64,000 nt of DNA from an uncultured Thermotogae bacterium (lineage in GTDB: Bacteria; Bipolaricaulota; Bipolaricaulia; UBA7950; UBA9294), in contig CAZJLO010000002.1 in the NCBI GenBank assembly GCA_964547105.1, positions 40,779 to 104,778 on the forward strand, read 5' to 3'. Both the position numbers and the translations under genes were made by a program. Within the stretch, counting starts at the first letter, position 1, and each line of letters opens with the position of its first letter. Below, piece after piece: positions 4,824 to 62,020 of this stretch. A model generated the notes under the pieces. That model was not told where the DNA came from, searched no databases, and saw nothing but the letters and a program-made list of their open reading frames with translations.

Positions 4824-5245
4824 TCAATGCCTCCTTCATCCGCCCTGCTGTTGAACGATTCTACCGCTTCCTGTGCAAGAGAGTCAGATACTGAGTACGG
4901 GGCTGCAACCACCTCCTGCCTTCGACCAGAGAGCCTCTTGTTCGAGGCAGGTGGACACGGCGAGACAACGAGCTGGGAACGGAGCGGGTATAGTTCCGGT
5001 TGAGATGTGGAGAGGACGAAACGACCCGCAAACCCACGATGCATCGTGTAAACCAACGTGGTGACGCCTTGTTCTCCTACCTCGCAGCTGATCAGTCGTA
5101 AGGATCATAGGTCGTAAGGATCTCTTTACATCATTATATGGTGATATCTCTCCGGAATCAACCATGAGGAGAAAGAGACAGGCACAGCGACTGAGCCATG
5201 CCTGTCCCTCGTGATCAGAGTACGGGGGGTCTATTTGCTTGCTGG

Positions 5246-11255: not shown

Positions 11256-11286
11256 AGATGGTTCTCCTTCTGCTCGGTCCAAATTT

Positions 11287-12609
11287 CTAGTGCCGTGTGG
11301 GTCCCGGCGAACAGGCGTTCGGCGCGATGCGTTGTCCCCATGTCGATGTCCATTGGACAAGCGTCTCAAATGGAATGGTGTCGAAACCGATCACATAGGT
11401 TGGAAGCGTGTCGCCAAGCGGTGCGATCCATTGTTTCGGAAGCGCAGACGCACCAAGCGATGCGCCGACGAGAGCGCCGACCAGACCCGCTGTGCAGTCT
11501 GTGTCAAACCCGAGATGGAGCGTGCTCAAGAGAGACCGCTCGAAGTCCGCTTCGCCAAGGATCAGCCCGGCGACGGAACAGGCAAGACTGGGAATACAGT
11601 GAATCCAATGGTAGCGTCCAAACGTTCGTTCGATCCACTTGGCGACAGAGCGTTCATCCGGTGACCTCCGGCAACAATCGATGGTTGCCTCGACAGCCGC
11701 GATGAGGGGGCTGTCGGCCGGGATGTGGCTCAGTCCGGCAATCAGGGCATCCTCCACCGGCAATCCGGCTACGATGAGGGATGTGGTCGCAGCGACGTAG
11801 ACTTCGCCGTCCACGCCTTCGCGGTAGTGAGAAATGCAGGCGTCCCGGAAGGCGGATTCCGCTGCGAGCCGCGGCGAGGCGGGGGCGACCAATCCGTGGA
11901 TCTCGCCGCGCATCTGCGCCCCGACCCATGCTCCGCAGGGATTGCGGAACCACCGGCTCTCCGGAGGCATCACACCGGCCGAGATGTTGTCCAAGGCGGC
12001 TTGCTCCGCGGTGTATGCGAACGGCAGATGCGAAAGCCACTGGAGTGCCAGATCCCGACTTGTCCAGTGAATACCGAACTCATCAAGAACGTGGAGCAGC
12101 AAAGGAGCATAGGCTGTGTCATCATTGACGAGCTTTGGTGTGCCAACATACGACTGGATCCGTCCGTGCGTGTGAAGGATCTGCTCTCGTGACCACCCTT
12201 CCACCGGTTCGCCGAGCGCCGTGCCCGCGCACTTGCCCAACCACGAGCCAAGGATACGATCTTCGTAGACCCGGTGATCGATCGGGAGCGTCATGGGGGG
12301 GAGGGTGCCCGCCGGGAGCTCCTCTTGGTAGGCCTCCCATGTGGCCGGTTCTTGCCGGCGCACGTCCGCGAGGTGCTTGACGATCAGCTCGTTGATCTTG
12401 GCCATCACGACGAGGAGATCATCGTCTCGATCGGCCAGGTAGAGCCGCTCCGCCTCGTCAAGCAGCGGATGTGCCGCAGCCATATCGCATCCAAGGTTCT
12501 CCATCGCCCGAACGGATGCACGCGTAGGATAGATCGAGATCCCTGAGTCGCCAGCGGTCTCCCAGGCGTTACGGATCGAGTTCCGGCGAGACGATGATCT
12601 GTTCATGAC
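11287..12609 (-). CDS. ADP-ribosylglycohydrolase-family protein
   Basis: Likely start MNRSSS.. (ATG 12609, 11 nt after upstream stop); ARH/DraG-family sequence throughout (ILGSWLGKCAGTALGEPVEGW.., DDTAY, GFDTDCTAGLVGALVGA). Confidence 0.8.
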   Translation of the reverse strand, partial: VMNRSSSRRNSIRNAWETAGDSGISIYPTRASVRAMENLGCDMAAAHPLLDEAERLYLADRDDDLLVVMAKINELIVKHLADVRRQEPATWEAYQEELPAGTLPPMTLPIDHRVYEDRILGSWLGKCAGTALGEPVEGWSREQILHTHGRIQSYVGTPKLVNDDTAYAPLLLHVLDEFGIHWTSRDLALQWLSHLPFAYTAEQAALDNISAGVMPPESRWFRNPCGAWVGAQMRGEIHGLVAPASPRLAAESAFRDACISHYREGVDGEVYVAATTSLIVAGLPVEDALIAGLSHIPADSPLIAAVEATIDCCRRSPDERSVAKWIERTFGRYHWIHCIPSLACSVAGLILGEADFERSLLSTLHLGFDTDCTAGLVGALVGASLGASALPKQWIAPLGDTLPTYVIGFDTIPFETLVQWTSTWGQRIAPNACSPGPTRH

Positions 12610-12620
12610 GGTCTCCTTCG

Positions 12621-13769
12621 TCACAGGGCCGCCGCCAGCAGCTCGACGACATCGAGTACATCGACCGAGTGCGCGGTACCCGCCCGCTGCTTGGCATCGA
12701 GAAAGGCCGTCTGGCATGCCGGGCAGGCGCTGACGATCGTATCCGCTTCCGTTGCGAGCGCTTCGGCGAAGCGCTCGGCTTCGGTTGTGATCGACAGCTG
12801 TTCGTGGTCGGCACGTACGAACCCGCCGCTACCGCAGCAGAACGATTGCGGGCCGCTGCGCGGCATCTCTCGTCGCTTCACACCGGGGATGGCATCGATC
12901 AGCTGCCGCGGTGGACCAAGGATGCCCAGGGATCGTCCCAGCGTGCAGGGGTCGTGATAGGTGACAAGGCGGCTTTGCCTCTTTAGTCTCAATTCGCGGA
13001 ATGCGGGAAGCTGCGCGAGATACTCAGTGATGTGAACGGCGCGTACAGGGAGGGGGTGTCCTGTCAGCTTGACGTAGTCCTCGCGGAACGTCCGGAGACA
13101 TCCCGGGCAGGCGAAGACCAGCGTCTCGGCACCGGAACGCCGGATACGTTCCAGATTCTCCTCCAGAGCTTGGCGGGCTCGATCGGGCTGTCCCATCGCC
13201 AAGAAGGGATGGCCGCAGCAAGTCTCATCTTCAAGAACGGCAAAATCGACGCCACATGCCTCGAGCAGCTGATAGGTTCCGCGGGCAATTCCCCGCCGCA
13301 GCAGAGACGGGGTGCAACCGACGAAGAAGACGACATCGGCAGTGGTGCCGACACGTTGCGTGCCTGGTAGCCAGGCAAGTCGCTTCGCTTGCGGGCGCCC
13401 GTACGGATTTCCGTTGTCGGCTACGTCTCTTACCAACGATGCCCCTCCCGGAAGAAGGAGGTCGCGCTCGGCAAGATCGGCCTTCATCGCGGCGTAGATG
13501 TCGGTCAGGGAGAGGTACTTGAAGCACTGCGACTCGCACGCGCCACACTCGGTGCAGGCGAAGACACGCTCGGCGACGTCTTGGTTGTAGGAAACAACGC
13601 CGTCGAGCAGGGCGCGGGCGATGGCGATCTTGCCTCGGGCGCCGTAGGATTCCAGCCTATTGTCCGCGTAGGGCGGGCAGATCGATTGTCCGGCGCTTTC
13701 CATGTGGTCAAAGCAGAATCCGCATCGCAAGCAGCTGTAAATCTGGTCCTTGTAGGCTTCGAGGTTCAT
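12621..13769 (-). CDS. Fe-S oxidoreductase with CCG domains (GlcF/heterodisulfide-reductase-like)
   Basis: 382 aa; two 4Fe-4S Cys clusters (CLRCGFCFDHME ; CTECGACESQC) and two CCG motifs (CGSGG, CPGC); ATGA overlap with upstream gene. Confidence 0.75.
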   Translation of the reverse strand: MNLEAYKDQIYSCLRCGFCFDHMESAGQSICPPYADNRLESYGARGKIAIARALLDGVVSYNQDVAERVFACTECGACESQCFKYLSLTDIYAAMKADLAERDLLLPGGASLVRDVADNGNPYGRPQAKRLAWLPGTQRVGTTADVVFFVGCTPSLLRRGIARGTYQLLEACGVDFAVLEDETCCGHPFLAMGQPDRARQALEENLERIRRSGAETLVFACPGCLRTFREDYVKLTGHPLPVRAVHITEYLAQLPAFRELRLKRQSRLVTYHDPCTLGRSLGILGPPRQLIDAIPGVKRREMPRSGPQSFCCGSGGFVRADHEQLSITTEAERFAEALATEADTIVSACPACQTAFLDAKQRAGTAHSVDVLDVVELLAAAL

Positions 13770-15184
13770 CGGGTCTCCTCAGGGACGAGCAGTCCCGGAT
13801 TCAGGGTTCCGTGCGGATCGAGCGTTCGCTTCAGGGTTCGGAGGAGGTCATAGCTGGTTCCCAGCTTAGGCATGATGTGCGGTGCGACGCCGCCTCCAAG
13901 TCCGCCGGGGCTCATCCGGCCCTCGGTGAACATCCGTTCGGCGATCTCGCCTCGTAGCTTCATGCCATACTCCCAGGCGTCGTCCCGGCGCTCATCGTAG
14001 AGGGTATCGATCCACAGATACGCGCCGTTGCGGGAGAAGTACGCATCGACACCCTTGACGCGGATGCCGAATTGCTCGAAGGCTTGCTCTCGTTCATTCT
14101 TCATCTCACGGAACAGGGCGATCGCCTTCTTCAGCCCCTGGGAAGAGATGAAGCCGGCCACTTCTGGACAGAAGTACGGACGATGGCTGTAATAGGGGCC
14201 GGGAGCCGTGTTGCGCAACCAGGAGTACATGTGTTCCTGCCAGTAGTGCTTGGTCCCGTCGGCCGGACGTGCCCGGCCGGCATGCGAGAAGCAGATCGCT
14301 TCCGCCTCTCGAATCCGCTCTCTTGCAGCCGATGCTCGATCTCGGACGATCAGATGAAGGAACGCGTCTCCCTGCTCTCCGGTTGGCTTGGGCCCCCCGA
14401 ACAACCCGACGATAAACGTCGCAGCACCGCTTGCCTGGATGCCGGTCGCAGCATCGATGGCATCCTGATACTCATCGAAGGCAAAGAAACGGAATTCTTC
14501 CGCCTCGGGGATCCGGTGGATGCGATACGTTACGGATGTGATGATACCGAGGATGCCGTACGACCCAATGAACAACCCGGCAAGATCTGCTCCGTTTGCG
14601 TTTCTTTCGATCGGCTCGGACGCGGGATTGGACGCGGAACCCGTATGGATGACGGCACCCGACGGCAAGACGACCTCAAGAGAGAGAACATGATCTCCGG
14701 TCATGCCGTATTCGGTTGCGCCGTGCGGAGTGGCGTTAACGGCCACGGTCCCGCCGATCGTACACGAGAACAGCCCGCCGCCTCCGGGCACGCCGAGTTC
14801 CCAACCACTTCGGTGGAGCTGCCGATCGATGGCGTACCAAATCGCGCCGCACTGTGCGGTGACGTATCCGGCCTCAAGATCGATCTTCGTGATCCCGTTC
14901 ATGCGGGTTGTGTCGAGGACGACAACTCCTTCCTTGACGCCGCTTCCGAGGAACGTGGTTGCACGGCCACGGGTGTGGATCTGGAATCCGAGGTCATTCG
15001 CCAGCCGCACCAAGGAACCGATTTCTTCGGTGCTCCCGGGTTGGACGACCAGAGCGGGGATGCCTGCTCTGTCGGGCCCGCAATCGCGCGAGTAGCAAAC
15101 GCGATCCACGAGGCTGTCCGTCACATGCTCTGCTCCGACGATCTCTGCGAGCTTTCCGCCGAGATTCTCAAGCATATCGTTCAC
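13766..15184 (-). CDS. FAD-linked oxidase (GlcD/D-lactate dehydrogenase family)
   Basis: 472 aa; FAD-binding PCMH domain sequence (ALVVQPGSTEEIGSLVRLANDLGFQIHTRGRATTFLGSG), C-terminal FAD-oxidase domain. Confidence 0.8.
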   Translation of the reverse strand: MNDMLENLGGKLAEIVGAEHVTDSLVDRVCYSRDCGPDRAGIPALVVQPGSTEEIGSLVRLANDLGFQIHTRGRATTFLGSGVKEGVVVLDTTRMNGITKIDLEAGYVTAQCGAIWYAIDRQLHRSGWELGVPGGGGLFSCTIGGTVAVNATPHGATEYGMTGDHVLSLEVVLPSGAVIHTGSASNPASEPIERNANGADLAGLFIGSYGILGIITSVTYRIHRIPEAEEFRFFAFDEYQDAIDAATGIQASGAATFIVGLFGGPKPTGEQGDAFLHLIVRDRASAARERIREAEAICFSHAGRARPADGTKHYWQEHMYSWLRNTAPGPYYSHRPYFCPEVAGFISSQGLKKAIALFREMKNEREQAFEQFGIRVKGVDAYFSRNGAYLWIDTLYDERRDDAWEYGMKLRGEIAERMFTEGRMSPGGLGGGVAPHIMPKLGTSYDLLRTLKRTLDPHGTLNPGLLVPEETR

Positions 15185-16559
15185 CTACTTTCCTGATTTC
15201 TTGAAGAGCCAACGCTTCGTCAATGCAGGTGAGTTCTCGGTCTTGCATGACGAGCCGCCCGTTGATGATGGTTGTGATGACATCGTTCGCCTTGGCGCAG
15301 TACACCAGAGATGCGAACAGGTCGTCGATCCTGTTGGAGAACTGGAGTTGGTGAGCGCCCGTTGTGTCGAGAACGACCAGATCGGCGAGCTTTCCCGGAT
15401 CGATGACGCCGGCATCGATGCCGCATGCTTGGGCGCCGTTCTCCGTGGCGAAGCGGAAGATATCTCGAGCCGTGAGGACCGTCGGGTCTTGCTTGGCGAC
15501 CTTCTGAAGCAGAAGACCGCAGCGCATTTCCTCAAACGGATCGAGTAGATCATTGGATGCTGCACCGTCCGTTCCCAACGTGATCGGAACGCCGGCACGA
15601 TGGAGATCGACGATCGGTGCAATCCCGCTTCCGAGTTTCATGTTGCTTTTGGGGTTGTATGCCACGGCGACATCGCGTGCTGCAGCCAGCCGGATGTCTC
15701 CCTCGGTGAGGTGGACGCCGTGGACGGCAAGAAGCGGGCTCTCGAGAACGCCGAGGTTGTCCAGGCGTGCCAATGGAGTCATACCGACATCCTGCAGCGA
15801 TTGCTCGACCTCCCAAGCAGTCTCCGACACATGGGTTGTGATTCCGAGGTTGTGTACGTGGGCCTGCCTGCCAATCCACGTGAGCAGGTCGTCCGTGCAG
15901 GTAAACGGCGTCGAAGGCGCGAGCATCACGGTCGACAAGGGAGCAACCCTTGGCATTCGGTGCCATCGCTCGATCAGGGCCAACGTGTCGTCCTTTGTCT
16001 GCTCGCGCGAGACGCGAAGTTCTTCGGGAACCCACTTGTCCACCAAGCTCATCGCGGCAACGCCGCGGATCCCGATCTGGTGCCAGGCGTCGATCACGCC
16101 GTCGATATTCATATCCATGTCTACGAAGGAAGTGATGCCGCTGCGGATCATTTCGATGCAGCCAAGAAGCGACCAGAGCGAGGCGATCTCCGTTGCACCA
16201 TCGTTCCAGGCAGCGCGAAGGACGCGCTTGACAAATGGGAATGTCACATCATCGCACCATGCGACCAGCGACAGGTCGTCGCGACGTCCTTTGAGCATTG
16301 ACTGATAGAGGTGGGTGTGGCTGTTGACCAGCCCGGGGATGACCAGCCGGTTGCGACCGTCGATCACGACAAGGTCGTCATCGGGACCGTTGTCGGATCC
16401 GAACGGCCCTTCCCCGACCGAGGAAACCCGCGTGCCTTCAATCAACACATCGACGTCGTGCTCGATTCGGTCGGCATCGCGGATCAGCGTCGAGATGTTC
16501 CTGAGTAGGATTCTCGATTCCGGCTGTCTGCCGGCGGGCAATACGATCCGATCGGTCAT
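15168..16559 (-). CDS. COG0402-type amidohydrolase (cytosine/guanine/MTA-SAH deaminase-like)
   Basis: Start MTDRIVLP at 16559 (ATGA overlap with upstream stop); motifs PGLVNSHTHLYQS, HVSET, AYNPKSNMKLGSG, GTDGAASN. Confidence 0.85.
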   Translation of the reverse strand: MTDRIVLPAGRQPESRILLRNISTLIRDADRIEHDVDVLIEGTRVSSVGEGPFGSDNGPDDDLVVIDGRNRLVIPGLVNSHTHLYQSMLKGRRDDLSLVAWCDDVTFPFVKRVLRAAWNDGATEIASLWSLLGCIEMIRSGITSFVDMDMNIDGVIDAWHQIGIRGVAAMSLVDKWVPEELRVSREQTKDDTLALIERWHRMPRVAPLSTVMLAPSTPFTCTDDLLTWIGRQAHVHNLGITTHVSETAWEVEQSLQDVGMTPLARLDNLGVLESPLLAVHGVHLTEGDIRLAAARDVAVAYNPKSNMKLGSGIAPIVDLHRAGVPITLGTDGAASNDLLDPFEEMRCGLLLQKVAKQDPTVLTARDIFRFATENGAQACGIDAGVIDPGKLADLVVLDTTGAHQLQFSNRIDDLFASLVYCAKANDVITTIINGRLVMQDRELTCIDEALALQEIRKVGERYA

Positions 16560-17713
16560 CTCGTTTCTCCTTGTCCATGACGGAAACCATGTGATTCTCT
16601 GTCGTCGTCTCGAATCCAGGACAGAGCGTGTGTCGCGCAGGCGGAGACACAAAGGCCGCACTGCCGGCACAGTGAACCGACCTCGGAGTCAAACGACGAC
16701 CTGGCTCCGTAAGGGCAGATTTCCACGCAGCGGTTGCAGTGGGTACATACCTCGGGATTCCAGATGAAGGTGAACAGGCGATCGCCCCCGGCATCGGCGG
16801 CAGGCCGTGTGGCGTCGGGAACGATGGCCGCGCCGATGCAGTCGGCGTAGGCATCGAAGCCAAGCTCCTCAAGGCGCAGCGCGAGGCCTTCCGGAAGCGA
16901 TCGGAGCATCGCCAAGCCTCGGAGAAGAGGCGCGGTGCAGACACCGATTGCCGTGGCCCCCGCCATCAGCATCTCCACCGCATCTTCGGCACGCATGACT
17001 CCGCCCGTTCCGATGATCGGGACGGAGCGGGGGAGAACCGCGGACAGGCGGGCAACCAAATGAAGTGCAATCGGGAATAGCGAGCCGCCGGAGAGCCATG
17101 CTGAGACGGAGCCAAGTTGGGGCCGTCGTCTCTCCACATTGATGCGCAGCGCTGGTCCGATGGAATCGGAAGCGGTGATCGCAGCTGCGCCGCGCGCTGC
17201 GCAACGCTGCGCTGCGCCGATCGGATCGCGCCAATTGACGCTGATCTTGGCGATCACCGGGATCTTAACCAGAGTGACGGCCTGCATGACCATTGCTTCG
17301 ATCGCCGCCTCATCGTACGACACGATCTCCAGGGCGTCCGCTCCCGCTTTCTCCAGGCAGGGCGCCAACGCAGCGACATCCGGCGGTGCGAGCCCGACAC
17401 TGGCGATCACGATCGCCCCGGATTCCTTTGCAAGCGGAAGCTCGTGTTCGATCCACGCGGACGCAGACAGCGTCGACCAGCGTTCGGCGTTGAGAAGCGT
17501 GCCGGTTCGCTCCCAGAAGATAGTTGGCGTCGGATCGACGGCTGCGGCCCGGGAGATCGTCTTGGTGACCACGGCCGCTGCTCCGGCTTTGTGCGCGCGG
17601 GCGATCGATTCCCCGTTGTGGGAAAGGGGTCCCGAGGCGAGCAGGAACGGATGGGGCAATTGCAGGGAGCCGATTCGAGTCGTCAGTTTCACGAGAGATC
17701 TCCTTTCTTCCAC
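16556..17713 (-). CDS. dihydroorotate/dihydropyrimidine dehydrogenase-like flavoprotein with C-terminal 2x[4Fe-4S] ferredoxin domain (PreA-like)
   Basis: 385 aa; DHOD class-1 TIM-barrel sequence (LASGPL, IIGTGGV) followed by CTHCNRCVEICP and CRQCGLCVSAC ferredoxin motifs. Confidence 0.8.
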   Translation of the reverse strand: MEERRSLVKLTTRIGSLQLPHPFLLASGPLSHNGESIARAHKAGAAAVVTKTISRAAAVDPTPTIFWERTGTLLNAERWSTLSASAWIEHELPLAKESGAIVIASVGLAPPDVAALAPCLEKAGADALEIVSYDEAAIEAMVMQAVTLVKIPVIAKISVNWRDPIGAAQRCAARGAAAITASDSIGPALRINVERRRPQLGSVSAWLSGGSLFPIALHLVARLSAVLPRSVPIIGTGGVMRAEDAVEMLMAGATAIGVCTAPLLRGLAMLRSLPEGLALRLEELGFDAYADCIGAAIVPDATRPAADAGGDRLFTFIWNPEVCTHCNRCVEICPYGARSSFDSEVGSLCRQCGLCVSACATHALSWIRDDDRESHGFRHGQGETR

Positions 17714-19056
17714 AGCCGAAGAGCCTCGCGTGCGGCGCGGGAGCGGATGTATTCACTGTCCAACGTCCGGACCGTGCCACGCTCCATCAGGATGTTCCCG
17801 CCGACCATTGACAGCACGACATGCGTGCTGTTCCGATAGAGGAGCGTCTGGTCGAGCAGGTTGTCTTCGGTGAGCGGCGTATCCTCGCCTGGAACGACCC
17901 CGATCAGATCGGCCGGTGCGCCGACGGACAGCATGCCGAGTTCGGGCATACCGATTGCGGCGGCGCTCCACGAAGTCGCCATTCTCCATGCAGTCTCCGC
18001 AGGAATCGCGGTGGCATCGCGTTGTGCCGCCTTGTGAAGGAGGAACGCACCGCGCATCACTTCGAATGGATCATTGATGTAGCCGTCCGTGCCCAGCCCC
18101 GGGGTCAGCCCGCGTTCGATCATTCGCGGAACCGGGGCGATGCCTCCTCCGACTTCGCAGTTGCTGAGCGGCATATGTGCGGCCCGGACTCCCTGCTTGG
18201 CAAGAACATCCAACTCATCGCCGTCCACGGCGACAAGCTGCGATGCGAGAACGGATGGGTCCCAGAAAGCGAGCCGGTCGTACCAATGCACGGGGCGAAG
18301 CCCATTTCGTGCAACGCACCACGCCGGTTCATACTCGCTCTCCGAAAGATGCAGCTGGAGGTCGGCGTGAACACTTGCCGCCGATGCCTTTGCCCGGCGC
18401 ACGAATGCTTCGGAACACGTGAAGCTGGTATGGATGCATTGCATCCCGCGGATTCGGGAGTCGCCCCTCGTATCTCGGATGAACCGCTCGTTCTCGGTGA
18501 GGGGCGCATCGCCGCAGGTGGCTCCTGCCCGCTCGGACGCCTCGATCGATAGAATCGCCCGAAGGCCGGCTTGCTCCACGACGGATGCCTCGCTTGCGAG
18601 AATGCCCGCCGGTGCGAATGGCGCCTCTAGAATGTCGCAGAAGGTCGTGAATCCCGAGCGGATCATGGACAGGCAGGCCAGTTCGCAGGCGGCGACGATC
18701 ATCTGTTCATCAAGGAGGTTCTCGACTTTGGGCCACCAGAACGCCTCCAGGAACGAGTCGAATCCCGGTTCCGGCGGAGCGGCGGGGATTCCGTGGGCCA
18801 ACAGCCCGTATGCGTGCATGTGGGCGTTTACGAATCCAGGGCACAGGACAAGATCCCGACAATCGATGTGGTCGGCGTTGGGGAATGTCTCGGCGAGCGT
18901 CTCGTTGGGAGCGATCTCGGTGATTCGCCCGTCGCAAACGACGACACCCCACCCGCGATGAATCGAGAAAGCGGATGAGGAAGTCGGCGTACCGCCTGAT
19001 CCCGATCCCGGTCCCGATGCGATGACCCAGCCGCCGAAAAGAACAAGAGGATTCAC
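17689..19056 (-). CDS. COG0402-type amidohydrolase (SsnA/chlorohydrolase/deaminase-like), second copy
   Basis: 455 aa; CPGFVNAHMHAYG, HLSESEYE, HMPLSNCEVGGG, GLGTDG; ATGA overlap with upstream AOR stop. Confidence 0.85.
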   Translation of the reverse strand: MNPLVLFGGWVIASGPGSGSGGTPTSSSAFSIHRGWGVVVCDGRITEIAPNETLAETFPNADHIDCRDLVLCPGFVNAHMHAYGLLAHGIPAAPPEPGFDSFLEAFWWPKVENLLDEQMIVAACELACLSMIRSGFTTFCDILEAPFAPAGILASEASVVEQAGLRAILSIEASERAGATCGDAPLTENERFIRDTRGDSRIRGMQCIHTSFTCSEAFVRRAKASAASVHADLQLHLSESEYEPAWCVARNGLRPVHWYDRLAFWDPSVLASQLVAVDGDELDVLAKQGVRAAHMPLSNCEVGGGIAPVPRMIERGLTPGLGTDGYINDPFEVMRGAFLLHKAAQRDATAIPAETAWRMATSWSAAAIGMPELGMLSVGAPADLIGVVPGEDTPLTEDNLLDQTLLYRNSTHVVLSMVGGNILMERGTVRTLDSEYIRSRAAREALRLWKKGDLS

Positions 19057-21008
19057 GAGACCTCGCCTCCTGCAAGTGGCTTGCCTGCCGGGCGCCGGCG
19101 GTATCGCTTCAGCTCCGCCTCGACGTCAGCAAGTTTGAGTCTCCGCAGTGTCTCGGGTGTCGGCCAGCCATCCACCTGATCCCACCCGCGCAACGCGTAG
19201 TACTCGGCCAACATCTGCTCGGCATGTGCGATCTCGCCGCGGGCGCCTCGGGAAGGAGATGGTTCCTGCGTGAATCGCCGAGGCAGACGGTCATCGGCGC
19301 GGGAAATCCCGTGGCGGGCGTTGTAGGCACGCATTTGGTTGGTGATGCGCTCGCCTGCCTCGCGGAGTTCAGCTTCGTTAATGTCCCAGCCGGTTGACAA
19401 ACGGAGCCCTTCCGTAAGATCGGGCCAGTAGATCTCGGCCATCACAAATGTTCCGCCGGATTTGCAGACACCGAGGGAATCTACCACGGCCCCGAAGTCC
19501 TCGCCATCTTTCACGAGGAATGGCTTGTGTTTTGTTGCATGGGGATCCGCCATCTCAGGAAGATACGTTGGGCCGTAGCGGCGTGCGACCTCGTCAGGAA
19601 CGCCGGTTTCATCGATGGTTGGGAACGCCTTCAGATGGTCGGCGCCTCGGCTGGCGGTGATGTGGGCCAATCCCATCGACTGCTGTGCCCGACCGTCCTG
19701 TGCGGGGATCTCCATCCCCTTGACGTGCATGGCATATTCGGCGCAATCACCGCCGATGGAAGCGGCCGCTCGTGAAACCCCTTCAGCAAGGAGATCGCCG
19801 AACCCTTCGCGAGCCGCGATCATCCGAATGAGCTTGAGCATGCTCTCCGAGTTGCCCCAGCTAAGATCGAGCCCTTGGGAAACCGAATGCGGCAGCATGT
19901 CGCGCTGCTGTAGTTCCATTGCGAACGAAATGGCGCGCCCGGCGGAAATCGTGTCCATCCCCAGCCGATCGCAGAGATCATTGGCTTCGAGGATCGCTTC
20001 GATGTCGGCGCAACCGACGTTGGAACCGAAGGCGTTGAGCGTCTCGTATTCCAGGCTCGAGACCTCAAGGCCGCTCCTCGGTCCTCGTTCAATGCGGTAG
20101 ACCTTGTCGCAGCGGATCGGGCATGCGTGACAGCCCTCATCTCGCACCCAGTAGCGATTGCGGAGGACCTCGGCGCTGATGGCCGCCGCTTGGTCGAACT
20201 CCCCGTTCTGGAAATTCCGTGTCGGGAATCGCCCGATCTCGTTGGCAAGAAGAACCAAGCTTGCCGTTCCGTATCGGGAGACGGTGGGGAACAGCGGGTT
20301 GGCCCGGATCCGCGCATGCATCGCACGCGCGACTGTGGCGAAGCGCTTGGAGTTGGCCAGCGGGACAGGTCGAGTTCCGCGGATGCAGATTGCCTTGAGC
20401 TTCTTTGAGCCGAGAACGGCACCAAGTCCACACCGCCCGAAACTGCGATTCGGCGATGCCTGGATTGCCGCGAAGCGAATGAGATTCTCTCCAGCGGGTC
20501 CGATTGTGGCGACCTTCATCGCCGGGTCCTCGAACCGGCAACGGATCATTCGCTCTGTTTCCAGCGTGTCATGTCCCCAGAGGTCGTCGGCCGGCTCAAG
20601 CCTCGGGCCGCGACGGTCGATGCAGAGCAAGGTTGGAGATGGGGCAATGCCTCGGATGGCAATCATGTCGTAGCCGGCGCGTTTCAGCTCAGGTCCGAAG
20701 AAGCCGCCAGCATTGGAGTCGCCGTAGATCCCGGTCAGCGGCGACTTGGCGATCGCCTCGGTGCGTCCCGAACAGGGCCAACCCGTTCCCACGAGCGGAC
20801 CGGTGGCAATCACCAGCCAAGCGTCGGCGGACAAGGGGTCGATCTCGGCGCCGACGTGATCCCACAACCAGCGGACGCCGAACCCGTTGCCGCCCAACCA
20901 GGACCTAGCGAACGCTCCGTCCAAGACGCGTGTGCGAACGGTCCCGGCGGAAAGATCGACTTCAAGCCATGCCCCCATGTAGCCACCAGCGATTGCGTTC
21001 GATGTCAT
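19053..21008 (-). CDS. tungsten-type aldehyde:ferredoxin oxidoreductase (AOR) family protein 1
   Basis: Likely start MTSNAIAGGYMGAWLEVDLSAGTV (ATG 21008, ATGA overlap with upstream AOR stop); AOR N-domain (DPLS..LVIATGPLVGT..SGR..AKSPLTG..DSNAGGFFGPELK), DEGCHACPIRC 4Fe-4S ligands, EYE..NAFGSN, C-terminal LPRRF.. Confidence 0.9.
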   Translation of the reverse strand: MTSNAIAGGYMGAWLEVDLSAGTVRTRVLDGAFARSWLGGNGFGVRWLWDHVGAEIDPLSADAWLVIATGPLVGTGWPCSGRTEAIAKSPLTGIYGDSNAGGFFGPELKRAGYDMIAIRGIAPSPTLLCIDRRGPRLEPADDLWGHDTLETERMIRCRFEDPAMKVATIGPAGENLIRFAAIQASPNRSFGRCGLGAVLGSKKLKAICIRGTRPVPLANSKRFATVARAMHARIRANPLFPTVSRYGTASLVLLANEIGRFPTRNFQNGEFDQAAAISAEVLRNRYWVRDEGCHACPIRCDKVYRIERGPRSGLEVSSLEYETLNAFGSNVGCADIEAILEANDLCDRLGMDTISAGRAISFAMELQQRDMLPHSVSQGLDLSWGNSESMLKLIRMIAAREGFGDLLAEGVSRAAASIGGDCAEYAMHVKGMEIPAQDGRAQQSMGLAHITASRGADHLKAFPTIDETGVPDEVARRYGPTYLPEMADPHATKHKPFLVKDGEDFGAVVDSLGVCKSGGTFVMAEIYWPDLTEGLRLSTGWDINEAELREAGERITNQMRAYNARHGISRADDRLPRRFTQEPSPSRGARGEIAHAEQMLAEYYALRGWDQVDGWPTPETLRRLKLADVEAELKRYRRRPAGKPLAGGEVS

Positions 21009-22903
21009 CCGTCTTCCCCTTGTCCCGGCAGGTCCAGTCGCGCCAACGTTGTCTCGGTCGGCAGGCCGTCGCGCGTCCAACCGCGAAGGCCGTAGTAGGT
21101 TTGGAGCATGGCCGGCAGATCGTGGATTCTTGGTTGTGGCGCTGAAACGGACCGTTCCCGGAGAACTTGCTCGGATTGATGGAGTGGAAGCGAATCCTCA
21201 ACGAATCGCCTTGGGAGGGTGTCGTCCGCTGATCGGAGCCCATGCTGGACGTTGATCCAGCGCTCGAGATTGACAATCCGCTCCCCGACTGTGAGAAGAT
21301 CACTCGCCGACATCGGCAATCCCAGCGATGACAGCGCCAGCGCGATGTCCGTCGGGAGAATGGCGTACGTTTCGGTTGTTGTGAACTTGCAGACGCCGAG
21401 AGCGTCGGAAACAGCACAGTACTCCTCGGAGAACTTCAGAAGGCTCGGCTTGGAGGTTTCGTCCCACGGGTCGAGTACGGATGGAAGCAGGTCGGGAAGG
21501 ATTTTCTTGACGACCGTCTCATTGTTGGTGAGCTCGATGGTCGGGAGGCCGTACAGGTGATCAGCGCCTCGATTGGACGTCGCATGCCCGAGGCCGAACG
21601 CCTTGGCCACACGTGGCTCCTGGCAAGGGATCTCAAGGCCCTTCACATGCATTGCGAGATCGAGGGCATCGCCGCCGATCCGTTCCGCCGCACATCGCGT
21701 TCCTTGGCCGAGCAATGCTCCAAGACCGCGCTGCGATGCTATCTGCTCGATCAATTCAAGGATTGCGGCCGGATTGCCCCAGGTGAGGTCAACCGTTGGA
21801 TCATCGAGCAGCCCGCGTTCGTGGCACTCCATCGCGAATGAGATGGCGCCGCCGACGGAGATGGTGTCGAGCCCCAGCTGGTTGCAGCGAGCATTGGCAT
21901 GGACGATTGCCTCCGCGTCGGAGCAGAAACAGTTGGGGCCGAGCGCGTCGATCGACTCATATTCGGGGCCGGCGCTTCGGCACTGATGAGGTCCTGTCCC
22001 GACTTCTGAGATGCGGCCGCACCGAATCGAACAACCCTGGCAGCCTTTGGTTTGGGATCGGAAAGGCTCAAATGCGCCGGCATCAACCCGATCGACAAAC
22101 GGGACTTGCCCCAACCGGTGGTTCTTCGTCGGAAGATCGCCGACGACATTCTTGATCGCCACCAGGTAGGGCGTTCCCCATTGGGCAAGCGACGAAACAC
22201 CGGGGTTGTCGGCGACAGCACGGTGGGCTGCGCTCGCTAACGATACGAACCGGCGTGGCCAGCGCAGCGTATCCCCCGATACCGTTACAATCGCCTTGAG
22301 CCGTTTGTGACCGAGAACCGCGCCTCCGCCGCAACGCGCCGCGGCGCGTCCACCGTCGATCAGAATTCCGGCCATCGGGACACCACGTTCGCCGGCGGGA
22401 CCGATGCAGGCGACCGAAGCGGAGGCAGGTCTCACTTGATCAAGGAGGCGTGCCTCAGCGACATCCGAGTCCATCCCCCACACAAACGACGCGTCGCAAA
22501 GGACGGCGGTCCCATCTTCTACGCGCAGGTAGACCGGATCGTGGGCCCGCCCGGCGATGGCCAGTGCGGCGATGCCTTGGGACGCGAGCCGATGGGCGAG
22601 GGCTCCTCCGGCATTGGCGTAGCCGTAGATCTCCGTTAGCGGAGATCTGAAACCAAAGTGAACCCGCGAAGACGACGGCCACGGGCTGGCGGACAGAAGC
22701 CCCGGTGCGACAATAAACGGGGCTTCGGGGGAACACGGGGCAATCTCCCAGATGTGGGCGTCGGCAAGAAGCCGCGCCGCCAACCCTCGACCGCCAAGAT
22801 ACGAAGAGCGGTAGGACGATGGCAGGACGGAACGGGTGATGGAGCGCGTTTCGAGGTCGACACAGAGCATGAAGGAAGGAAGGGGAGCGCTAGGGTTAGG
22901 CAT
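21005..22903 (-). CDS. tungsten-type aldehyde:ferredoxin oxidoreductase (AOR) family protein 2
   Basis: 632 aa; same AOR architecture (CQGCSIRC, EYESIDALGPN, LPRRFVED); alternative start MLCVDLETRS at 22870; the two AORs are clearly divergent paralogs, not a recent duplicate. Confidence 0.85.
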   Translation of the reverse strand: MPNPSAPLPSFMLCVDLETRSITRSVLPSSYRSSYLGGRGLAARLLADAHIWEIAPCSPEAPFIVAPGLLSASPWPSSSRVHFGFRSPLTEIYGYANAGGALAHRLASQGIAALAIAGRAHDPVYLRVEDGTAVLCDASFVWGMDSDVAEARLLDQVRPASASVACIGPAGERGVPMAGILIDGGRAAARCGGGAVLGHKRLKAIVTVSGDTLRWPRRFVSLASAAHRAVADNPGVSSLAQWGTPYLVAIKNVVGDLPTKNHRLGQVPFVDRVDAGAFEPFRSQTKGCQGCSIRCGRISEVGTGPHQCRSAGPEYESIDALGPNCFCSDAEAIVHANARCNQLGLDTISVGGAISFAMECHERGLLDDPTVDLTWGNPAAILELIEQIASQRGLGALLGQGTRCAAERIGGDALDLAMHVKGLEIPCQEPRVAKAFGLGHATSNRGADHLYGLPTIELTNNETVVKKILPDLLPSVLDPWDETSKPSLLKFSEEYCAVSDALGVCKFTTTETYAILPTDIALALSSLGLPMSASDLLTVGERIVNLERWINVQHGLRSADDTLPRRFVEDSLPLHQSEQVLRERSVSAPQPRIHDLPAMLQTYYGLRGWTRDGLPTETTLARLDLPGQGEDG

Positions 22904-45319: not shown

Positions 45320-46285
45320 TCAGAACGTGAACCGCGCCGAGACGACGTGGGATCCAGAAATGCCGATGACGCCCTGCTGGAAAGGTTGGACGTAAGCATA
45401 GTCGACGACGATCCCCCTGATCGGGCCGACGCCGACCCCTCCAGAGAAACGAATGCGCCTCTTATCTTCTTCGGAAGTCGGTTCGACACGAATGCCTGCA
45501 CGAAGTGAGAGGCTGGGGATGACCAGGATCTCCACTCCGGCTCCGATCGAGGTTGGCTGCTGCACGCTGAGGGTTAGTTCGGATGCTGTCTTGAGAGTCC
45601 CGTCGAACCAGGCCGCGGATGCGGCCAGGCGATGGGTCGCCGGAACGATCGAGAGGGGTTCCTGACCGGTTCCCTTCCAGTGGATGAACGTATTGGAGAT
45701 ATCGCGGCTGTGGAAGGCCAACGTCCAGACGCCTGTCGAGAACTGACCACCGAGATCCCATCCGAATCCGCGTGCCTCACCTTCGAGCATCTCCTCGTGG
45801 TAGAGCTTGATCGTCGTTCCCAAACGGAGCGATCCGCTCTGCGACGATGAACCAGCGCCGACTCCCACAAGCAGGATCGAGCTTGTATAGTCGAACAGCC
45901 CGTTGCCCTCCGTGCTCGGGATGTCTTCGACCGATGCATTCAGCCAACCGATCCCGGCGCCGAGACGCCCTGAACCGAATACACTTGCGGTTCCAATGAA
46001 TTGCTGCGAATAGCCGAGGTTCGGACCGAGCGGCTGGCTGTACATTGCCGCAAGCTCCAGCGGAACCGAGCACAACAAAGCGGGATTCCAGAACACGGCT
46101 GTTGCATCGTTTACGATAGCCGTTGCCGTGCCGCCAAGGGCAAGCGCACGCGCCCCGACACCCTCACGGAACTGCGCCGCTGCGCTCCATCCAGGTTCGA
46201 TCTGCGCCTCGGCCGCGATGACGAACACAAGACAGACTAGGGCAAACAAGATTGCCGCCTTGGATAGGATCGAACGCTTCCGCAT
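45320..46285 (-). CDS. outer-membrane beta-barrel protein, PorV/FadL-like
   Basis: 321 aa; signal peptide, AVFWNPA motif, alternating amphipathic strands, C-terminal Phe; AGGAGG SD. Confidence 0.5.
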   Translation of the reverse strand: MRKRSILSKAAILFALVCLVFVIAAEAQIEPGWSAAAQFREGVGARALALGGTATAIVNDATAVFWNPALLCSVPLELAAMYSQPLGPNLGYSQQFIGTASVFGSGRLGAGIGWLNASVEDIPSTEGNGLFDYTSSILLVGVGAGSSSQSGSLRLGTTIKLYHEEMLEGEARGFGWDLGGQFSTGVWTLAFHSRDISNTFIHWKGTGQEPLSIVPATHRLAASAAWFDGTLKTASELTLSVQQPTSIGAGVEILVIPSLSLRAGIRVEPTSEEDKRRIRFSGGVGVGPIRGIVVDYAYVQPFQQGVIGISGSHVVSARFTF

Positions 46286-46329
46286 GATCAGCCTCCTATA
46301 AGTACGCCACGTAGTTCATCCTACAAGAA

Positions 46330-46358
46330 GGAGGCGGATCTCGGAAAGACCCGCCTCC
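46330..46358 (-). terminator. stem-loop (GGAGGCGG..13 nt..CCGCCTCC), candidate intrinsic terminator/attenuator
   Basis: Perfect 8-bp GC-rich inverted repeat 11 nt after the T9SS-cargo stop, followed on the minus strand by a U-containing stretch. Confidence 0.45.
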
Positions 46359-46368
46359 GATCGTCGTC

Positions 46369-48183
46369 CTAACGAAGGATGGCGATCTTGTCGACAGCGA
46401 CAGAGATCCAGCTACCCTCCACTTCCGCAAGTACCTGATAGACGTAGACGCCGTTCGCCAAGAAGCGTCCGTGCAGATCCTCCGTATGCCAAGCGATTTC
46501 AGCACCTGCGGAGATCTGCTCCCAGATCAACGCGCCGGACAGATCGAATACTTTCACCCACAGTTGATCGACCTCGACCGCCATCGGCCCGACAGCCTCG
46601 AAGTACGCCGTATGAACGTCGCGAATCGGGCTTGGGGCGACGGAAACACTGAGCCCCGCGGCGATCTCCATCGGCAAGGCATCGATGCTGGTCGTTCCAT
46701 GCGGCGGTACGGTGCGTATCGAGTCACATGCGGTGAACTCCTCGCCGCTTGTCTTCGTTCCCTTGAGATAGCCGACTTCGTCTCCGTGTACGAAGTCACA
46801 CTCCTGCGCGATGAAGTGAGCGACCAAGTCGACGAAGCCGTCGCCGTTGACGTCCTCGTACCCGACCTGCGGCACTGGGTTCTTCTTGCCGCGGTAGGCG
46901 ATGGAGTCCTCATCGCCCGTGTGCCCGAACGTCAACGATGTGACATCAACCTCCGTCGTGGCGTCAAACGCCTCGTTGGAGAGGATCGCCACCGGGATCT
47001 TCCCGTTTTGATCGGGGTTGATCGAATTCGGGAAACTGCCTGGCTTGATATCGATCAGAACGGGAGGAGGAGGCGTCGTCTTCTCCAGTGTCAGCAGCGC
47101 CCATAACGTGCTGAGGATGCCGGTCGAACTCCCGTCCCAGTTAGACCGCGGCCAAGAACCGTCGGCGTTCTGGGCATCGCAGATGAGGGTGGTCATCTCA
47201 TCGAACCAGTCGATCGGCGATCCGCCGATCTCGAGTTCCCCAATCTGGTACGCTTCAAACCCCTTCATCAAGCAGTAGGCTGCCAACAGACAGGGCGTCG
47301 AGCCTCCCGATCCCTTCCAGCCAGGGTCAACGTTGAGGTCGTTCCAGTGCAGCTCGATGTAGTCGAGGGCGTCTTGCACGCGTGTGTCATCAACATCGTC
47401 GCCGACGAAGGCAAACTCGAACAGCAGGTTGCCTGTCTTCAGCAGGTTGACCCAGTCATCGGGATCTGTATATCCGGATCCGCCGCTGGCATCGCTCTGG
47501 ATGAAATCAAGCCACCCGCTTAACGCGGCCTTGACACTGTCAACGTTGCACCCCTGTGCCTCGGCATAGCGCAACGCAAGCACCACGAAGCCGGTGTTGG
47601 AGTTGTCGCTAGGTTCGTTGGTGAACCAGTACCGCCACGCGCCGTCTGGATTCTGCGCCATCTTGAAGTACTCGACAATCTCTGACGTGATGTACTCTAG
47701 TGTTTGCGCTCCTGTCCAAGGGTTGGCTCCAGGATGCACATACGTGGGGTTTTTCGCAGCGGTGACGGCCATCAACGCTAGCGCTGTATTGTAGGTCTCG
47801 TGGCCAGCGGTGTTGAAGCAGATTCCGGTTCCACAGGATTCCGCTGCTTCAAGGATGTAATCGAGTCCGGCCATAAAATGGGCATGATAAATGTAGCCGG
47901 CATCGAATGGGCCAGTGATTTCACCTTCCTCGGCGAGTTCGTAGGCGTAGTCTGCGAGCTTGACCACAGCAAAACCTGTGCCGGCGATCGGTTCGTAGTC
48001 ACTCCAATGTCCGTCTGCGTACTGCTGTGTCACCATCCACGCAACGCCGGCCTCAATTGCCGCTTGGATCTCTTCGTCGCTTGCTCCCATCGCCGGCAGC
48101 ATGAGCATCCCGGCCAGGAGAAGCACAAACAGTCCTCCGATGAACTTGCGGATCATGATCAGCCTCCTTGGTATCTTTCCCAT
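46369..48183 (-). CDS. secreted protein with alpha-toroid (prenyltransferase/terpene-cyclase-like) repeats and C-terminal T9SS/FlgD-Ig-like sorting domain
   Basis: 604 aa; signal peptide (likely start MIRKF.. 48156); repeated ..DG.W.. motifs (QYADGHWSD, NPDGAWRYW, NADGSWPRS); C-terminal ..LANGVYVYQVLAEVEGSWISVAVDKIAILR resembles type IX secretion CTD. Confidence 0.55.
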   Translation of the reverse strand: MGKIPRRLIMIRKFIGGLFVLLLAGMLMLPAMGASDEEIQAAIEAGVAWMVTQQYADGHWSDYEPIAGTGFAVVKLADYAYELAEEGEITGPFDAGYIYHAHFMAGLDYILEAAESCGTGICFNTAGHETYNTALALMAVTAAKNPTYVHPGANPWTGAQTLEYITSEIVEYFKMAQNPDGAWRYWFTNEPSDNSNTGFVVLALRYAEAQGCNVDSVKAALSGWLDFIQSDASGGSGYTDPDDWVNLLKTGNLLFEFAFVGDDVDDTRVQDALDYIELHWNDLNVDPGWKGSGGSTPCLLAAYCLMKGFEAYQIGELEIGGSPIDWFDEMTTLICDAQNADGSWPRSNWDGSSTGILSTLWALLTLEKTTPPPPVLIDIKPGSFPNSINPDQNGKIPVAILSNEAFDATTEVDVTSLTFGHTGDEDSIAYRGKKNPVPQVGYEDVNGDGFVDLVAHFIAQECDFVHGDEVGYLKGTKTSGEEFTACDSIRTVPPHGTTSIDALPMEIAAGLSVSVAPSPIRDVHTAYFEAVGPMAVEVDQLWVKVFDLSGALIWEQISAGAEIAWHTEDLHGRFLANGVYVYQVLAEVEGSWISVAVDKIAILR

Positions 48184-60287: not shown

Positions 60288-61289
60288 CTACTCGACCTCA
60301 TCGGATGCGGAAGGCGGTGGGGGGGCAATGGGTTCCGCGAAGTAGTCGTTTCGCCAGACTTCGATCTCTCCATCCTCGAAGATGAGTGACAATCCGAGCA
60401 TCTCGTCTCCGCGCGCATAGAGACGGCCTTCACTGAGCGGGCCATGGAGGTGGTAGAGGTCGACTTCAAGAGCGACGCCACCTGACGAAATCATCACGGT
60501 GTCGACACGTTCGACGGACATCCGCGGCAACACGTCCCCTTCGCCGCCCTGCGCCGTTCCTGGCGGCCCTCCAAACATCAGCATGTCGAATTCGGCTTCG
60601 GGTTCGCCCCGTGCGGTAAGGATCGCAGGGAGCAGCGCGTAGCTGGAGAAAGTTCCGATAACGATTGCTTGGTCCGGCGAGATCGTGCGCGTAATCAGGT
60701 CACTGCCGGTCGTCCATTCGACGGTGTCTTCGAAGAACGTCGCCTCGACCAGCATGTCCTGTCCGAGCGGTGCTTGAGTCGTCAGACGATAGAATCGAGG
60801 ACGGCCGTCTCGACCGACGACGAGTTCCTGCTGGAAAGAGATGCGGAGCGTGACGAGTACGACTCTGAAGAAGAACTCCCCCGTCGTGCTCAACCGAATG
60901 GAATCCTCTTCGTTGCGTATCTCGAACTGCTCCTGGCCGAATGGCTTGGCATCGCTCGCCATTCTCAAGAGTCCGGAAAGCTCTGTCCAAGCGACTTGAT
61001 CAGGCTGCGCCGGCGGCAACTTGGCGGTGCTTACCGATGGAAAGACGAACACGGGGTAGGGCAGGGTAAGTGGCTCAACTGGAGAGCGGCTGATGGGCGG
61101 CGGAGCGGCATTGACCGGATCGAACCAGCTCTCGGGGAGTGGTCGTTGTACATCGGACGTAAGGGCATCCAACGAAGGGGAATCGGGCATCGTCAGGACG
61201 AATACAATGATCAAAGCGGCGATTGCTGCAACGACAACCCCCAAAATGGAGCCGCCGATGATGAGAATGCGCTTCCTCGTTTTTCTCAT
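60288..61289 (-). CDS. hypothetical membrane-anchored protein
   Basis: Start MRKTRKRILIIGGSILGVVVAAIAALIIV (single N-terminal TM), Pro-rich segments; no recognisable domain. Confidence 0.5.
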   Translation of the reverse strand: MRKTRKRILIIGGSILGVVVAAIAALIIVFVLTMPDSPSLDALTSDVQRPLPESWFDPVNAAPPPISRSPVEPLTLPYPVFVFPSVSTAKLPPAQPDQVAWTELSGLLRMASDAKPFGQEQFEIRNEEDSIRLSTTGEFFFRVVLVTLRISFQQELVVGRDGRPRFYRLTTQAPLGQDMLVEATFFEDTVEWTTGSDLITRTISPDQAIVIGTFSSYALLPAILTARGEPEAEFDMLMFGGPPGTAQGGEGDVLPRMSVERVDTVMISSGGVALEVDLYHLHGPLSEGRLYARGDEMLGLSLIFEDGEIEVWRNDYFAEPIAPPPPSASDEVE

Positions 61290-61372
61290 GCCATCTCCCT
61301 GTCCACGCTCGTCAGTGTAGCGGCATCTGCCCACGACACGGAGAGAAGAAGTGAAGCGTTGGTGAGGTTCCG

Positions 61373-62020
61373 GTGTCGAATGCCGTATCCTCTCGGAATG
61401 ACGCTGCTCGCGGAGGACGACGGTTGAACGAAGATCGCCCGGGCGGATCGCCGAAACGGTCTGCATGTCAGGCGTGCAAGATTCATGTGGTCGGTACGTC
61501 GGGATCCGGCAAGACCACATTTGCCGCCTCCCTTGCCGGGCGTCTCGGCATCCCTTACGTGGAGATGGATGCCTTGTTCTGGGGGCCGGGGTGGTCGAAG
61601 ACCCCTGATGACGTGTTTCGACAGAAGGTCGAATCGGCAACGCAGGGAGCTGCTTGGGTGATCGATGGGAACTACAGCCGAGTTCGCGATCTGGTTTGGC
61701 GGCGTGCGGATGTGGTGATTTGGCTTGACTACCGGTTGGCGGTCACGGTGTTTCGCGTGGTTCGCCGGACGGTGCGCCGTAGCCTGACGCACGAGGAACT
61801 CTGGCATGGCAACCGCGAGCGTTTCCGGACGTCGTTTCTCTCCAGGGAATCGATCGTTTTGTGGACACTTCGAACCTACTGGCGGCGGAAACGCGATTAC
61901 ACCGAGTTGGCGCAACGGAGCGAGGACTTCCAGCTTCATGTGGTTCGTCTTCGTTCCACGTGCCAGGCGCGTCAGTTGCTGAGGAATCCCCACGGCCTTC
62001 TAGGGTTGGGAGCAGCATGA
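61373..62020 (+). CDS. P-loop NTPase (adenylate/shikimate-kinase-like, topology-modulation-protein-type)
   Basis: Walker A VVGTSGSGKTT; start uncertain (may be internal GTG/ATT-proximal codon near 61480). Confidence 0.6.
   Translation: MSNAVSSRNDAARGGRRLNEDRPGGSPKRSACQACKIHVVGTSGSGKTTFAASLAGRLGIPYVEMDALFWGPGWSKTPDDVFRQKVESATQGAAWVIDGNYSRVRDLVWRRADVVIWLDYRLAVTVFRVVRRTVRRSLTHEELWHGNRERFRTSFLSRESIVLWTLRTYWRRKRDYTELAQRSEDFQLHVVRLRSTCQARQLLRNPHGLLGLGAA

Follow-up and report, generated by a model that had tools for sequence, protein, structure and literature searches.

In the 64 kb window studied here, that is, the whole stretch of 64,000 nucleotides of contig CAZJLO010000002.1, a part of which stands above, we describe two neighboring genes of the minus strand, termed A and B. 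Gene A encodes a protein with a signal peptide, an alpha/alpha toroid, a beta-sandwich and a C-terminal domain (CTD) that resembles the type A CTDs of T9SS, the system for type IX secretion, and gene B, located directly downstream, encodes a predicted outer-membrane beta-barrel related to PorV and PorQ. The domain architecture, the family relationships and an invariant gene linkage make it probable that A and B constitute a two-gene cargo/carrier module, in which B would bind the CTD of A and hold or shuttle the protein at the cell surface. A preliminary description of this DNA had already proposed a link between the two genes, and the comparative context strongly supports it.

Linkage of CTD genes and barrel genes

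Hidden Markov models (HMMs) for the CTD, the barrel and protein A were run over all loci that had been fetched via homologues of B or A, and a profile search of genome contigs with a 6-sequence alignment yielded 4 loci. In all metagenome loci that included upstream sequence (13 of 13) an open reading frame (ORF) with the CTD was found directly upstream of the barrel gene and on the same strand, and a CTD ORF occupied the directly upstream position in L001-L005, L008-L012 and L014 as well. Within the clade of the window itself, where the barrels are 74-100% identical, the gene for toroid and CTD always precedes the barrel gene (L001-L005, L011, L014-L017). A second clade has a barrel of 41% identity and a GC content of 53%; here the same CTD is present in the gene directly upstream, but joined to different passengers (469-1150 aa). 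Moreover, the barrel of L013, a Bipolaricaulota metagenome-assembled genome (MAG) with 71% GC, is flanked by three CTD proteins, namely a beta-helix/NosD protein, a matrixin with BACON and PKD domains and a subtilase. Among the more distant loci, L027 (barrel 32% identical) has a CTD ORF upstream of the barrel, in L034 the distance from an upstream CTD gene to the barrel is 2 kb, and L032 and L033 encode a CTD-like protein directly downstream. The passenger domains beside the barrels (among them toroid, beta-helix, matrixin and subtilase) are unrelated to each other. What is conserved is therefore a unit of signal peptide, any passenger, CTD and barrel rather than one of toroid and barrel. A partnership specific to the toroid was rejected, as barrel homologues pair with CTD cargo that has no toroid.

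The exchange of passengers is most evident in one population of the second clade (L018-L026). Its barrels are 96-100% and its CTDs 73-100% identical, whereas the passengers share only 22-61% identity, and the 5' leader with the signal peptide as well as the DNA flanks are conserved around the changing passenger (e.g. L025:2461-6725 and L018:1640-5783). Such swapping of passengers within one population suggests that the module is a display scaffold of natural origin. In L020 a further copy of the leader follows the barrel (9376-9531), a possible sign of tandem units. The second-clade module of L025 is located in a variable, defence-rich region; its neighbors encode an AbiU2-type HEPN protein, a UvrD/PD-(D/E)XK helicase-nuclease and a LytR_cpsA_psr protein (1073-1759, 7862-10804 and 13290-14507).

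In L032:2796-10803 (Eisenbacteria MAG JACRLI010000004) and L033:428-8507 the gene after the barrel encodes an FG-GAP protein of 583-601 aa with a C-terminus that the CTD HMM recognizes (E 1e-10), and the next one an Rhs/YD-shell protein of ~1767 aa, a different conserved order that may link PorV-like barrels to the display of Rhs toxins. In L013 the DNA that separates the second CTD cargo from the barrel (~5000-5750, +) resembles, on visual inspection of the alignment, a TlpA/ResA-type thioredoxin (VVLLLFWQSTCPDC); the ORF L013:4738-5766 was discarded as a low-complexity sequence in the wrong frame.

One could argue that the adjacency of A and B has no functional meaning, the CTD being a module of a generic, Ig/FlgD-like sort and B either a porin with a housekeeping role or a BamG-like subunit of BAM, the machinery for beta-barrel assembly. 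FadL-family barrels can indeed be BAM subunits (PMC12611786, PMC12578637), BamG (9hiv_F) was also among the Foldseek matches of B, and the CTD weakly matched FlgD_ig. However, the linkage is kept over clades of 53%, 60% and 71% GC and in unrelated genomic neighborhoods while the passengers change, and neither BamA nor BamD is encoded nearby. We therefore regard a coincidental neighborhood as highly improbable.

The C-terminal domain of protein A

In the AlphaFold model of A the seven strands of the C-terminal beta-sandwich fall within residues 503-585 of 595 and thus form the extreme end of the protein. Its last 100 residues matched the NCBIfam models of the PorZ CTD (E 1.4e-7) and the PorU CTD (E 5.5e-4). 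Foldseek aligned the C-terminal region to PorU 6za2 (E 2e-6), and with the profile of the A family the C-termini of PorU and PorZ were found in the PDB at E 0.3-0.4. In Pfam a faint match to CHU_C was obtained, and the type B model TIGR04131 reached E 0.12 at best. These results bear out the T9SS-like C-terminal beta-sandwich that had been noticed beforehand.

The classification as type A was examined with the siblings of the domain. CTDs encoded beside B homologues, which are 49-52% identical to that of A, scored 32.8, 30.1 and 30.0 bits on TIGR04183 (cutoff 23). Because these siblings exceed the cutoff, we accept the subfamily as a putative divergent branch of the type A CTDs, with the copy in A slightly under the threshold. 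Furthermore, A ends in ...VDKIAILR, and lysine or arginine is found at the position of the near-terminal lysine in most aligned CTDs. In structures of substrate and translocon a near-invariant lysine close to the C-terminus of type A CTDs contacts PorV (PMC10994853), and judging from the alignment the lysine of A corresponds to this residue. Searching all six-frame ORFs of the window with the CTD HMM revealed no CTD protein other than A.

The barrel encoded by gene B

The preliminary description had recognized B as an outer-membrane barrel with a C-terminal phenylalanine and an NPA motif as in FadL and PorV, and our analysis agrees with this. B has a signal peptide, ends in ...ARFTF and was modelled as a compact FadL-type barrel of 14 strands with an N-terminal helical hatch (pLDDT, the predicted local distance difference test score, 88.3). 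The motif W66-N67-P68-A69 lies in the hatch, and its WNP part is invariant in 54 relatives.

Several comparisons were used to place B among the FadL-type barrels. PorV (8gl6_F) gave the best TM-score in Foldseek (0.70), followed by FadL (3pgr; 0.67, E 5e-10). When the profile of the 54 relatives was compared with the PDB, PorV of Flavobacterium johnsoniae (6h3i_F) was retrieved at E 3e-33, whereas the next matches, TbuX (E 8e-5) and TodX, were at about E 1e-4 or weaker and hence ~28 orders of magnitude behind. The NCBIfam models of PorV2 and the PorV/PorQ family matched B with the scores discussed below, and the PorQ model (NF033711) did so at E 1e-7 (31.1 against a cutoff of 220). The Pfam family Toluene_X (PF03349) reached 15.6 bits at a gathering score of 29.7, and the PorP/SprF model TIGR03519 gave E 0.22. 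Since TM-score, NCBIfam and PDB-profile matches all favor PorV, we assign B to the PorV/PorQ branch within the FadL superfamily, of which it is a small representative. Among its relatives are proteins that bear the names PorV/PorQ family (in Poribacteria) and UPF0164 (in Calditrichaeota); a literature search for a connection of PorV with UPF0164 returned nothing relevant. The family is large, as an exhaustive search with the B profile retrieved 23,255 cluster representatives at E<=1e-3.

The toroid passenger

The alpha-toroid with repeated DG.W motifs, which had been suggested from the sequence, was confirmed by structure prediction. The model of A, calculated from an alignment of 53 homologues (pLDDT 87.8), consists of an (alpha/alpha)6 toroid with 12 helices and a beta-sandwich, which are connected by a short linker of low confidence to the 7-strand sandwich described above. 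Repeats of squalene-hopene cyclase matched A in Pfam at E 1e-5, under the gathering score, and in the PDB profile search at E 2e-9 across ~30 residues; Foldseek aligned the cyclase at E 1e-6 with a query-normalized TM-score (TMq) of 0.34. Lower-ranked Foldseek matches comprised drimenyl-diphosphate synthase and, weakly, the thioester-containing domain of C3/alpha-2-macroglobulin (TMq ~0.33). All terpene-cyclase scores in Pfam and NCBIfam were far under the family cutoffs. A complement-like thioester protein, which had been named as an alternative, was dismissed since A contains no CxEQ thioester motif.

The sequence DVDDT in A (47386-47400, minus strand; residues 254-258 of 595) equals the core of the DxDDTA acid motif of squalene-hopene cyclase. 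DVDD is missing from 52 of the 53 aligned homologues, and only the preceding GD is kept in the family; the match is thus most likely due to chance. Squalene-hopene cyclase and other class II terpene cyclases share the alpha/alpha toroid fold and QW-like repeats with A. However, they have two domains, whereas A is a secreted protein with one toroid that lacks the beta-gamma arrangement and whose DVDD is not conserved, and we therefore rejected a catalytic terpene cyclase. Instead, the polar motifs that are kept in the toroid family, Y.C.MKG and those listed in Table 1, point to a binding pocket rather than to a known catalytic site, and the passenger is probably a ligand-binding or polymer-acting module.

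A toroid protein at the cell surface had been considered uncommon. We found at least 813 homologues among the scored candidates, mostly without a CTD, and the passenger of A consequently belongs to a large uncharacterized secreted family of bacteria and archaea. Named homologues derive from Chloroflexota, Dehalococcoidia, Paceibacterota, bacteria of the candidate phyla radiation (CPR) and Methanohalophilus mahii, and they are annotated as 'terpene cyclase/mutase family' or 'prenyltransferase/squalene oxidase repeat'. Most are ~500 aa long and consist of a signal peptide, the toroid, the middle beta-sandwich and a short basic tail; a CTD is present in 25 of the best 120. Proteins from Chloroflexota, CPR bacteria and Methanohalophilus share signal peptide, toroid and middle sandwich with A at 40-50% identity over ~75% of its length, but they stop after the beta-sandwich. 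No conserved neighbors were seen for the distant homologues in Methanohalophilus, one CPR contig and one 80-kb contig. The toroid is thus a common secreted module to which the CTD was added in this lineage.

The toroid also has to be considered with regard to an alternative explanation of B. According to this explanation B is a FadL-type importer of hydrophobic molecules and A its extracellular capture partner, the toroid binding an isoprenoid or lipid and handing it to the channel. It is favored by the FadL fold of B with its hatch and NPA motif, by the Pfam matches of B relatives to Toluene_X and UPF0164 (PF03687), and by the likeness of the toroid fold to that of isoprenoid-binding enzymes. 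Nevertheless, the B family is far closer to PorV than to FadL or TodX, homologues of B pair with CTD proteins that carry proteases, beta-helices and other domains instead of toroids, and the toroid homologues of other phyla have no FadL neighbor. An importer with a capture partner is in our opinion quite improbable.

Host and proposed function of the module

The preliminary description had assumed a lineage related to the Fibrobacteres-Chlorobi-Bacteroidetes (FCB) group. The named relatives are MAGs of Candidatus Bipolaricaulota (P0006, L013, L014); in addition, a close relative bears the label Thermotogae and a short second-clade contig the label Ignavibacteria. In the NCBI taxonomy Bipolaricaulota is listed among the candidate phyla, outside FCB, and the lineage is most likely Bipolaricaulota and not FCB. 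A genome of Acetothermia was reported to be devoid of genes for lipopolysaccharide (LPS) yet to contain outer-membrane markers (PMC6092417), and the first isolate of Bipolaricaulota was described to have a toga-like outer membrane with an S-layer (bioRxiv 10.1101/2025.11.21.689855).

For the cargo/carrier module we propose the following course. Protein A would be exported by Sec, and the barrel B of the PorV/PorQ clade would bind its CTD. B would then retain or shuttle A at the cell surface in a non-covalent manner, like PorQ with PorZ and PorV with PorU, and the toroid together with the middle beta-sandwich would be the displayed passenger. In Porphyromonas gingivalis PorQ anchors PorZ and PorV anchors PorU in subcomplexes of roughly 1:1, and uncleaved cargo is kept at the surface by PorV (PMC5562754). 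Cargo of type B departs from the translocon on a carrier of its own, by which it is subsequently anchored (PMC10994853). Attachment to anionic LPS (A-LPS) would not be expected in a host reported to be without LPS; if the host lacks LPS, transfer to A-LPS by a sortase is unlikely and non-covalent retention on B would be the simplest solution.

A number of observations weigh against this proposal. The CTD of A remains under the cutoff of TIGR04183 (18.4 bits against 23, E 0.0016), and PF18962 gave nothing at E<=1. B stays below the cutoffs of NCBIfam PorV2 (NF052325; E 8e-21, 74.3 against 325) and of the PorV/PorQ family (NF033709; E 1.5e-15 over profile positions 10-310 of 326, 57.6 against 90). 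It is also 80 residues shorter than PorV and has no long extracellular loops; in PorV these loops wrap the CTD and enter SprA (PMC10994853). In L006 and L007 a homologue with toroid and CTD has no adjacent barrel and is followed by an unrelated membrane protein. Besides, the proposal by itself offers no route for a folded passenger across the outer membrane, other than a translocon whose gene would lie in another part of the genome.

The last point leads to the question whether the genome contains a complete canonical T9SS (SprA, the PorKLMN/GldKLMN motor and PorU), with B as the PorV orthologue and A as an ordinary type A substrate. This would agree with the type A sequence of the CTD and with the PorV match of the B profile, and the sibling cargoes, i.e. 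proteases and beta-helix proteins, resemble typical T9SS substrates. T9SS core genes, including porK/L/M/N and sov homologues, were searched for in the window and around the modules of L013 and L025. For the window, ~45 proteins or called genes, a part of its ORFs, were covered by Pfam scans or recorded gene calls; none of these belonged to the PorK/L/M/N, SprA, PorU, PorT or PorP families, and the flanks of L013 and L025 were likewise free of T9SS core families. A systematic survey detected T9SS in Bacteroidetes only (PMC4793230), and we found no publication that links Bipolaricaulota or Acetothermia with T9SS. Moreover, a general shuttle is not expected beside individual cargo genes at every locus, B does not have the long loops of PorV, and conjugation to A-LPS needs LPS, for which the Acetothermia genome mentioned above was reported to have no genes. 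Taken together, a canonical T9SS with B as its general shuttle appears unlikely.

More tentatively, the cargo/carrier pair might represent a minimal self-contained display system of Bipolaricaulota and neighboring deep-branching, LPS-less diderms whose outer membrane is toga-like. Such a system would consist of a type-A-like CTD and its cognate small barrel and would operate without SprA, GldLM/PorLM and PorU, the passengers being exchangeable cassettes that are framed by a conserved signal peptide and the CTD. We consider this possible, with more doubt than conviction. If it were true, the pair of CTD and barrel could be an older core on which the T9SS of Bacteroidota was built later.

Gene coordinates, intergenic spacer and neighboring genes

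The coordinates of both genes and their domains are summarized in Table 1. An earlier reading of A as a secreted protein of 604 aa begins at 48183 with an ATG 27 nt upstream of 48156. The sequence AAGGAGG, a ribosome-binding site (RBS), is located 7 nt ahead of the ATG at 48156 (M10). Its context, AAGGAGGCTGATCATG, is near-identical to that of B, and the translation-initiation context common to A (48142-48156, minus strand) and B (46286-46300, minus strand) is AGGAGGCTGATCATG. Because of this RBS context and of public gene calls, which also give the protein starting at 48156, the shorter gene was adopted, and M10 rather than the upstream ATG is likely the true start. Thus, the signal peptide and the ORF of the earlier reading are real, whereas its length was not kept.

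Table 1. Features of genes A and B and of the spacer between them (window coordinates)
Feature	Position	Strand	Description	Basis
Gene A	46369..48156	-	595 aa; signal peptide, alpha/alpha toroid, beta-sandwich, T9SS-type-A-like CTD	ORF, gene callers, AlphaFold model
Sec signal peptide of A	48082..48156	-	MIRKFIGGLFVLLLAGMLMLPAMGA, followed by SDEE; predicted cleavage site	Read from sequence; helix 2-18 in model
Toroid of A, residues 27-357	47086..48078	-	12 helices, three Q..DG.W repeats; polar motifs PSDNSNTG, GGSGY, W.N.LKTGN	
Middle beta-sandwich of A, residues ~365-482	46711..47064	-	Calcium-site-like loop DVNGDGFVD; faint FG-GAP match	
CTD of A, residues ~496-595	46372..46671	-	7-strand beta-sandwich, T9SS type-A-like; end ...VDKIAILR with near-terminal Lys	
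Hairpin in A-B spacer	46330..46358	-	GC-rich 13-bp hairpin, then TTCTTGT, in the 83-nt spacer; z = -2.75	
Gene B	45320..46285	-	321 aa; predicted PorV/PorQ-clade outer-membrane beta-barrel, FadL superfamily	
N-terminal hatch of B, residues 34-76	46058..46186	-	Includes W66-N67-P68-A69; NPA at 46079..46087	
Transmembrane barrel of B, residues 77-321	45323..46057	-	Connecting loops all <=12 residues; terminal Phe	DSSP (loops)

The hairpin in the spacer is kept in L003, L004, L011 and L017, although the proteins there are only ~60-77% identical, and a single G-to-A change in the relatives preserves the pairing. It looks like a leaky terminator or a transcript stabilizer inside an operon. The hairpin could also be an attenuator that sets the expression ratio of A to B.

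Other genes of the window encode sugar ABC transporters, acetate kinase, ArsR/ArsP, PhzF, an MFS transporter, a PKD protein and amidohydrolases. Two tandem genes for aldehyde:ferredoxin oxidoreductases are located at 19053-22903 (-). Beside them, at 8809-19056, three amidohydrolase-family genes are found together with genes for an FAD-binding protein, an ADP-ribosylglycohydrolase and a PfkB kinase. Methanopterin-type enzymes, to which the preliminary description had referred, did not occur among the ~45 checked proteins. An ORF of 450 aa at 60288-61640 (-) has no Pfam match and a probable internal start (MRKTRKRILIIGG), from which a protein with one N-terminal transmembrane helix and an uncharacterized extracytoplasmic domain would result.

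Comparison with known systems

So far, T9SS and sorting by CTD and PorV have been treated as features of Bacteroidota/FCB (PMC4793230; PMC10994853). A cargo/carrier module of A and B in an unrelated deep-branching phylum would offer a simpler system to study what the interaction of CTD and barrel does alone. It also bears on the evolution of T9SS and on the display of proteases and binding proteins by poorly known bacteria.

SprF-type carrier genes are encoded next to their type B cargo. In the SprB-SprF pair of F. johnsoniae one outer-membrane barrel is dedicated to each cargo and anchors it at the surface (PMC10994853), as we propose for A and B. However, the CTD of A is type A-like and not type B, and B belongs to the PorV/PorQ clade and not to PorP/SprF. 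The closest solved relative of B is F. johnsoniae PorV (6h3i_F, 8gl6_F), the shuttle of type A CTDs, which has the same FadL-type fold with a hatch. In contrast to B, PorV comprises 402 aa with long loops into SprA and around the CTD, ~65 of its residues (255-320) have no counterpart in B, and it serves all type A cargo without being linked to a cargo gene.

The pairs PorQ-PorZ and PorV-PorU of P. gingivalis, to which we liken A and B, consist of a 14-strand barrel of the PorV/PorQ family that holds a surface protein by its retained T9SS-type CTD. In comparison with these pairs, the genes for A and B are adjacent, the passenger varies, the host is placed outside Bacteroidota/FCB, and B is the smaller barrel, its loops being minimal; no genes for a sortase, an A-LPS pathway or a translocon were seen near A and B. 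The parts of the module are of known kinds. New here are the strict pairing of cognate parts, the small size of the barrel and its poverty in loops, passengers that behave like cassettes, and the occurrence in a non-FCB host that is reported to be without LPS.

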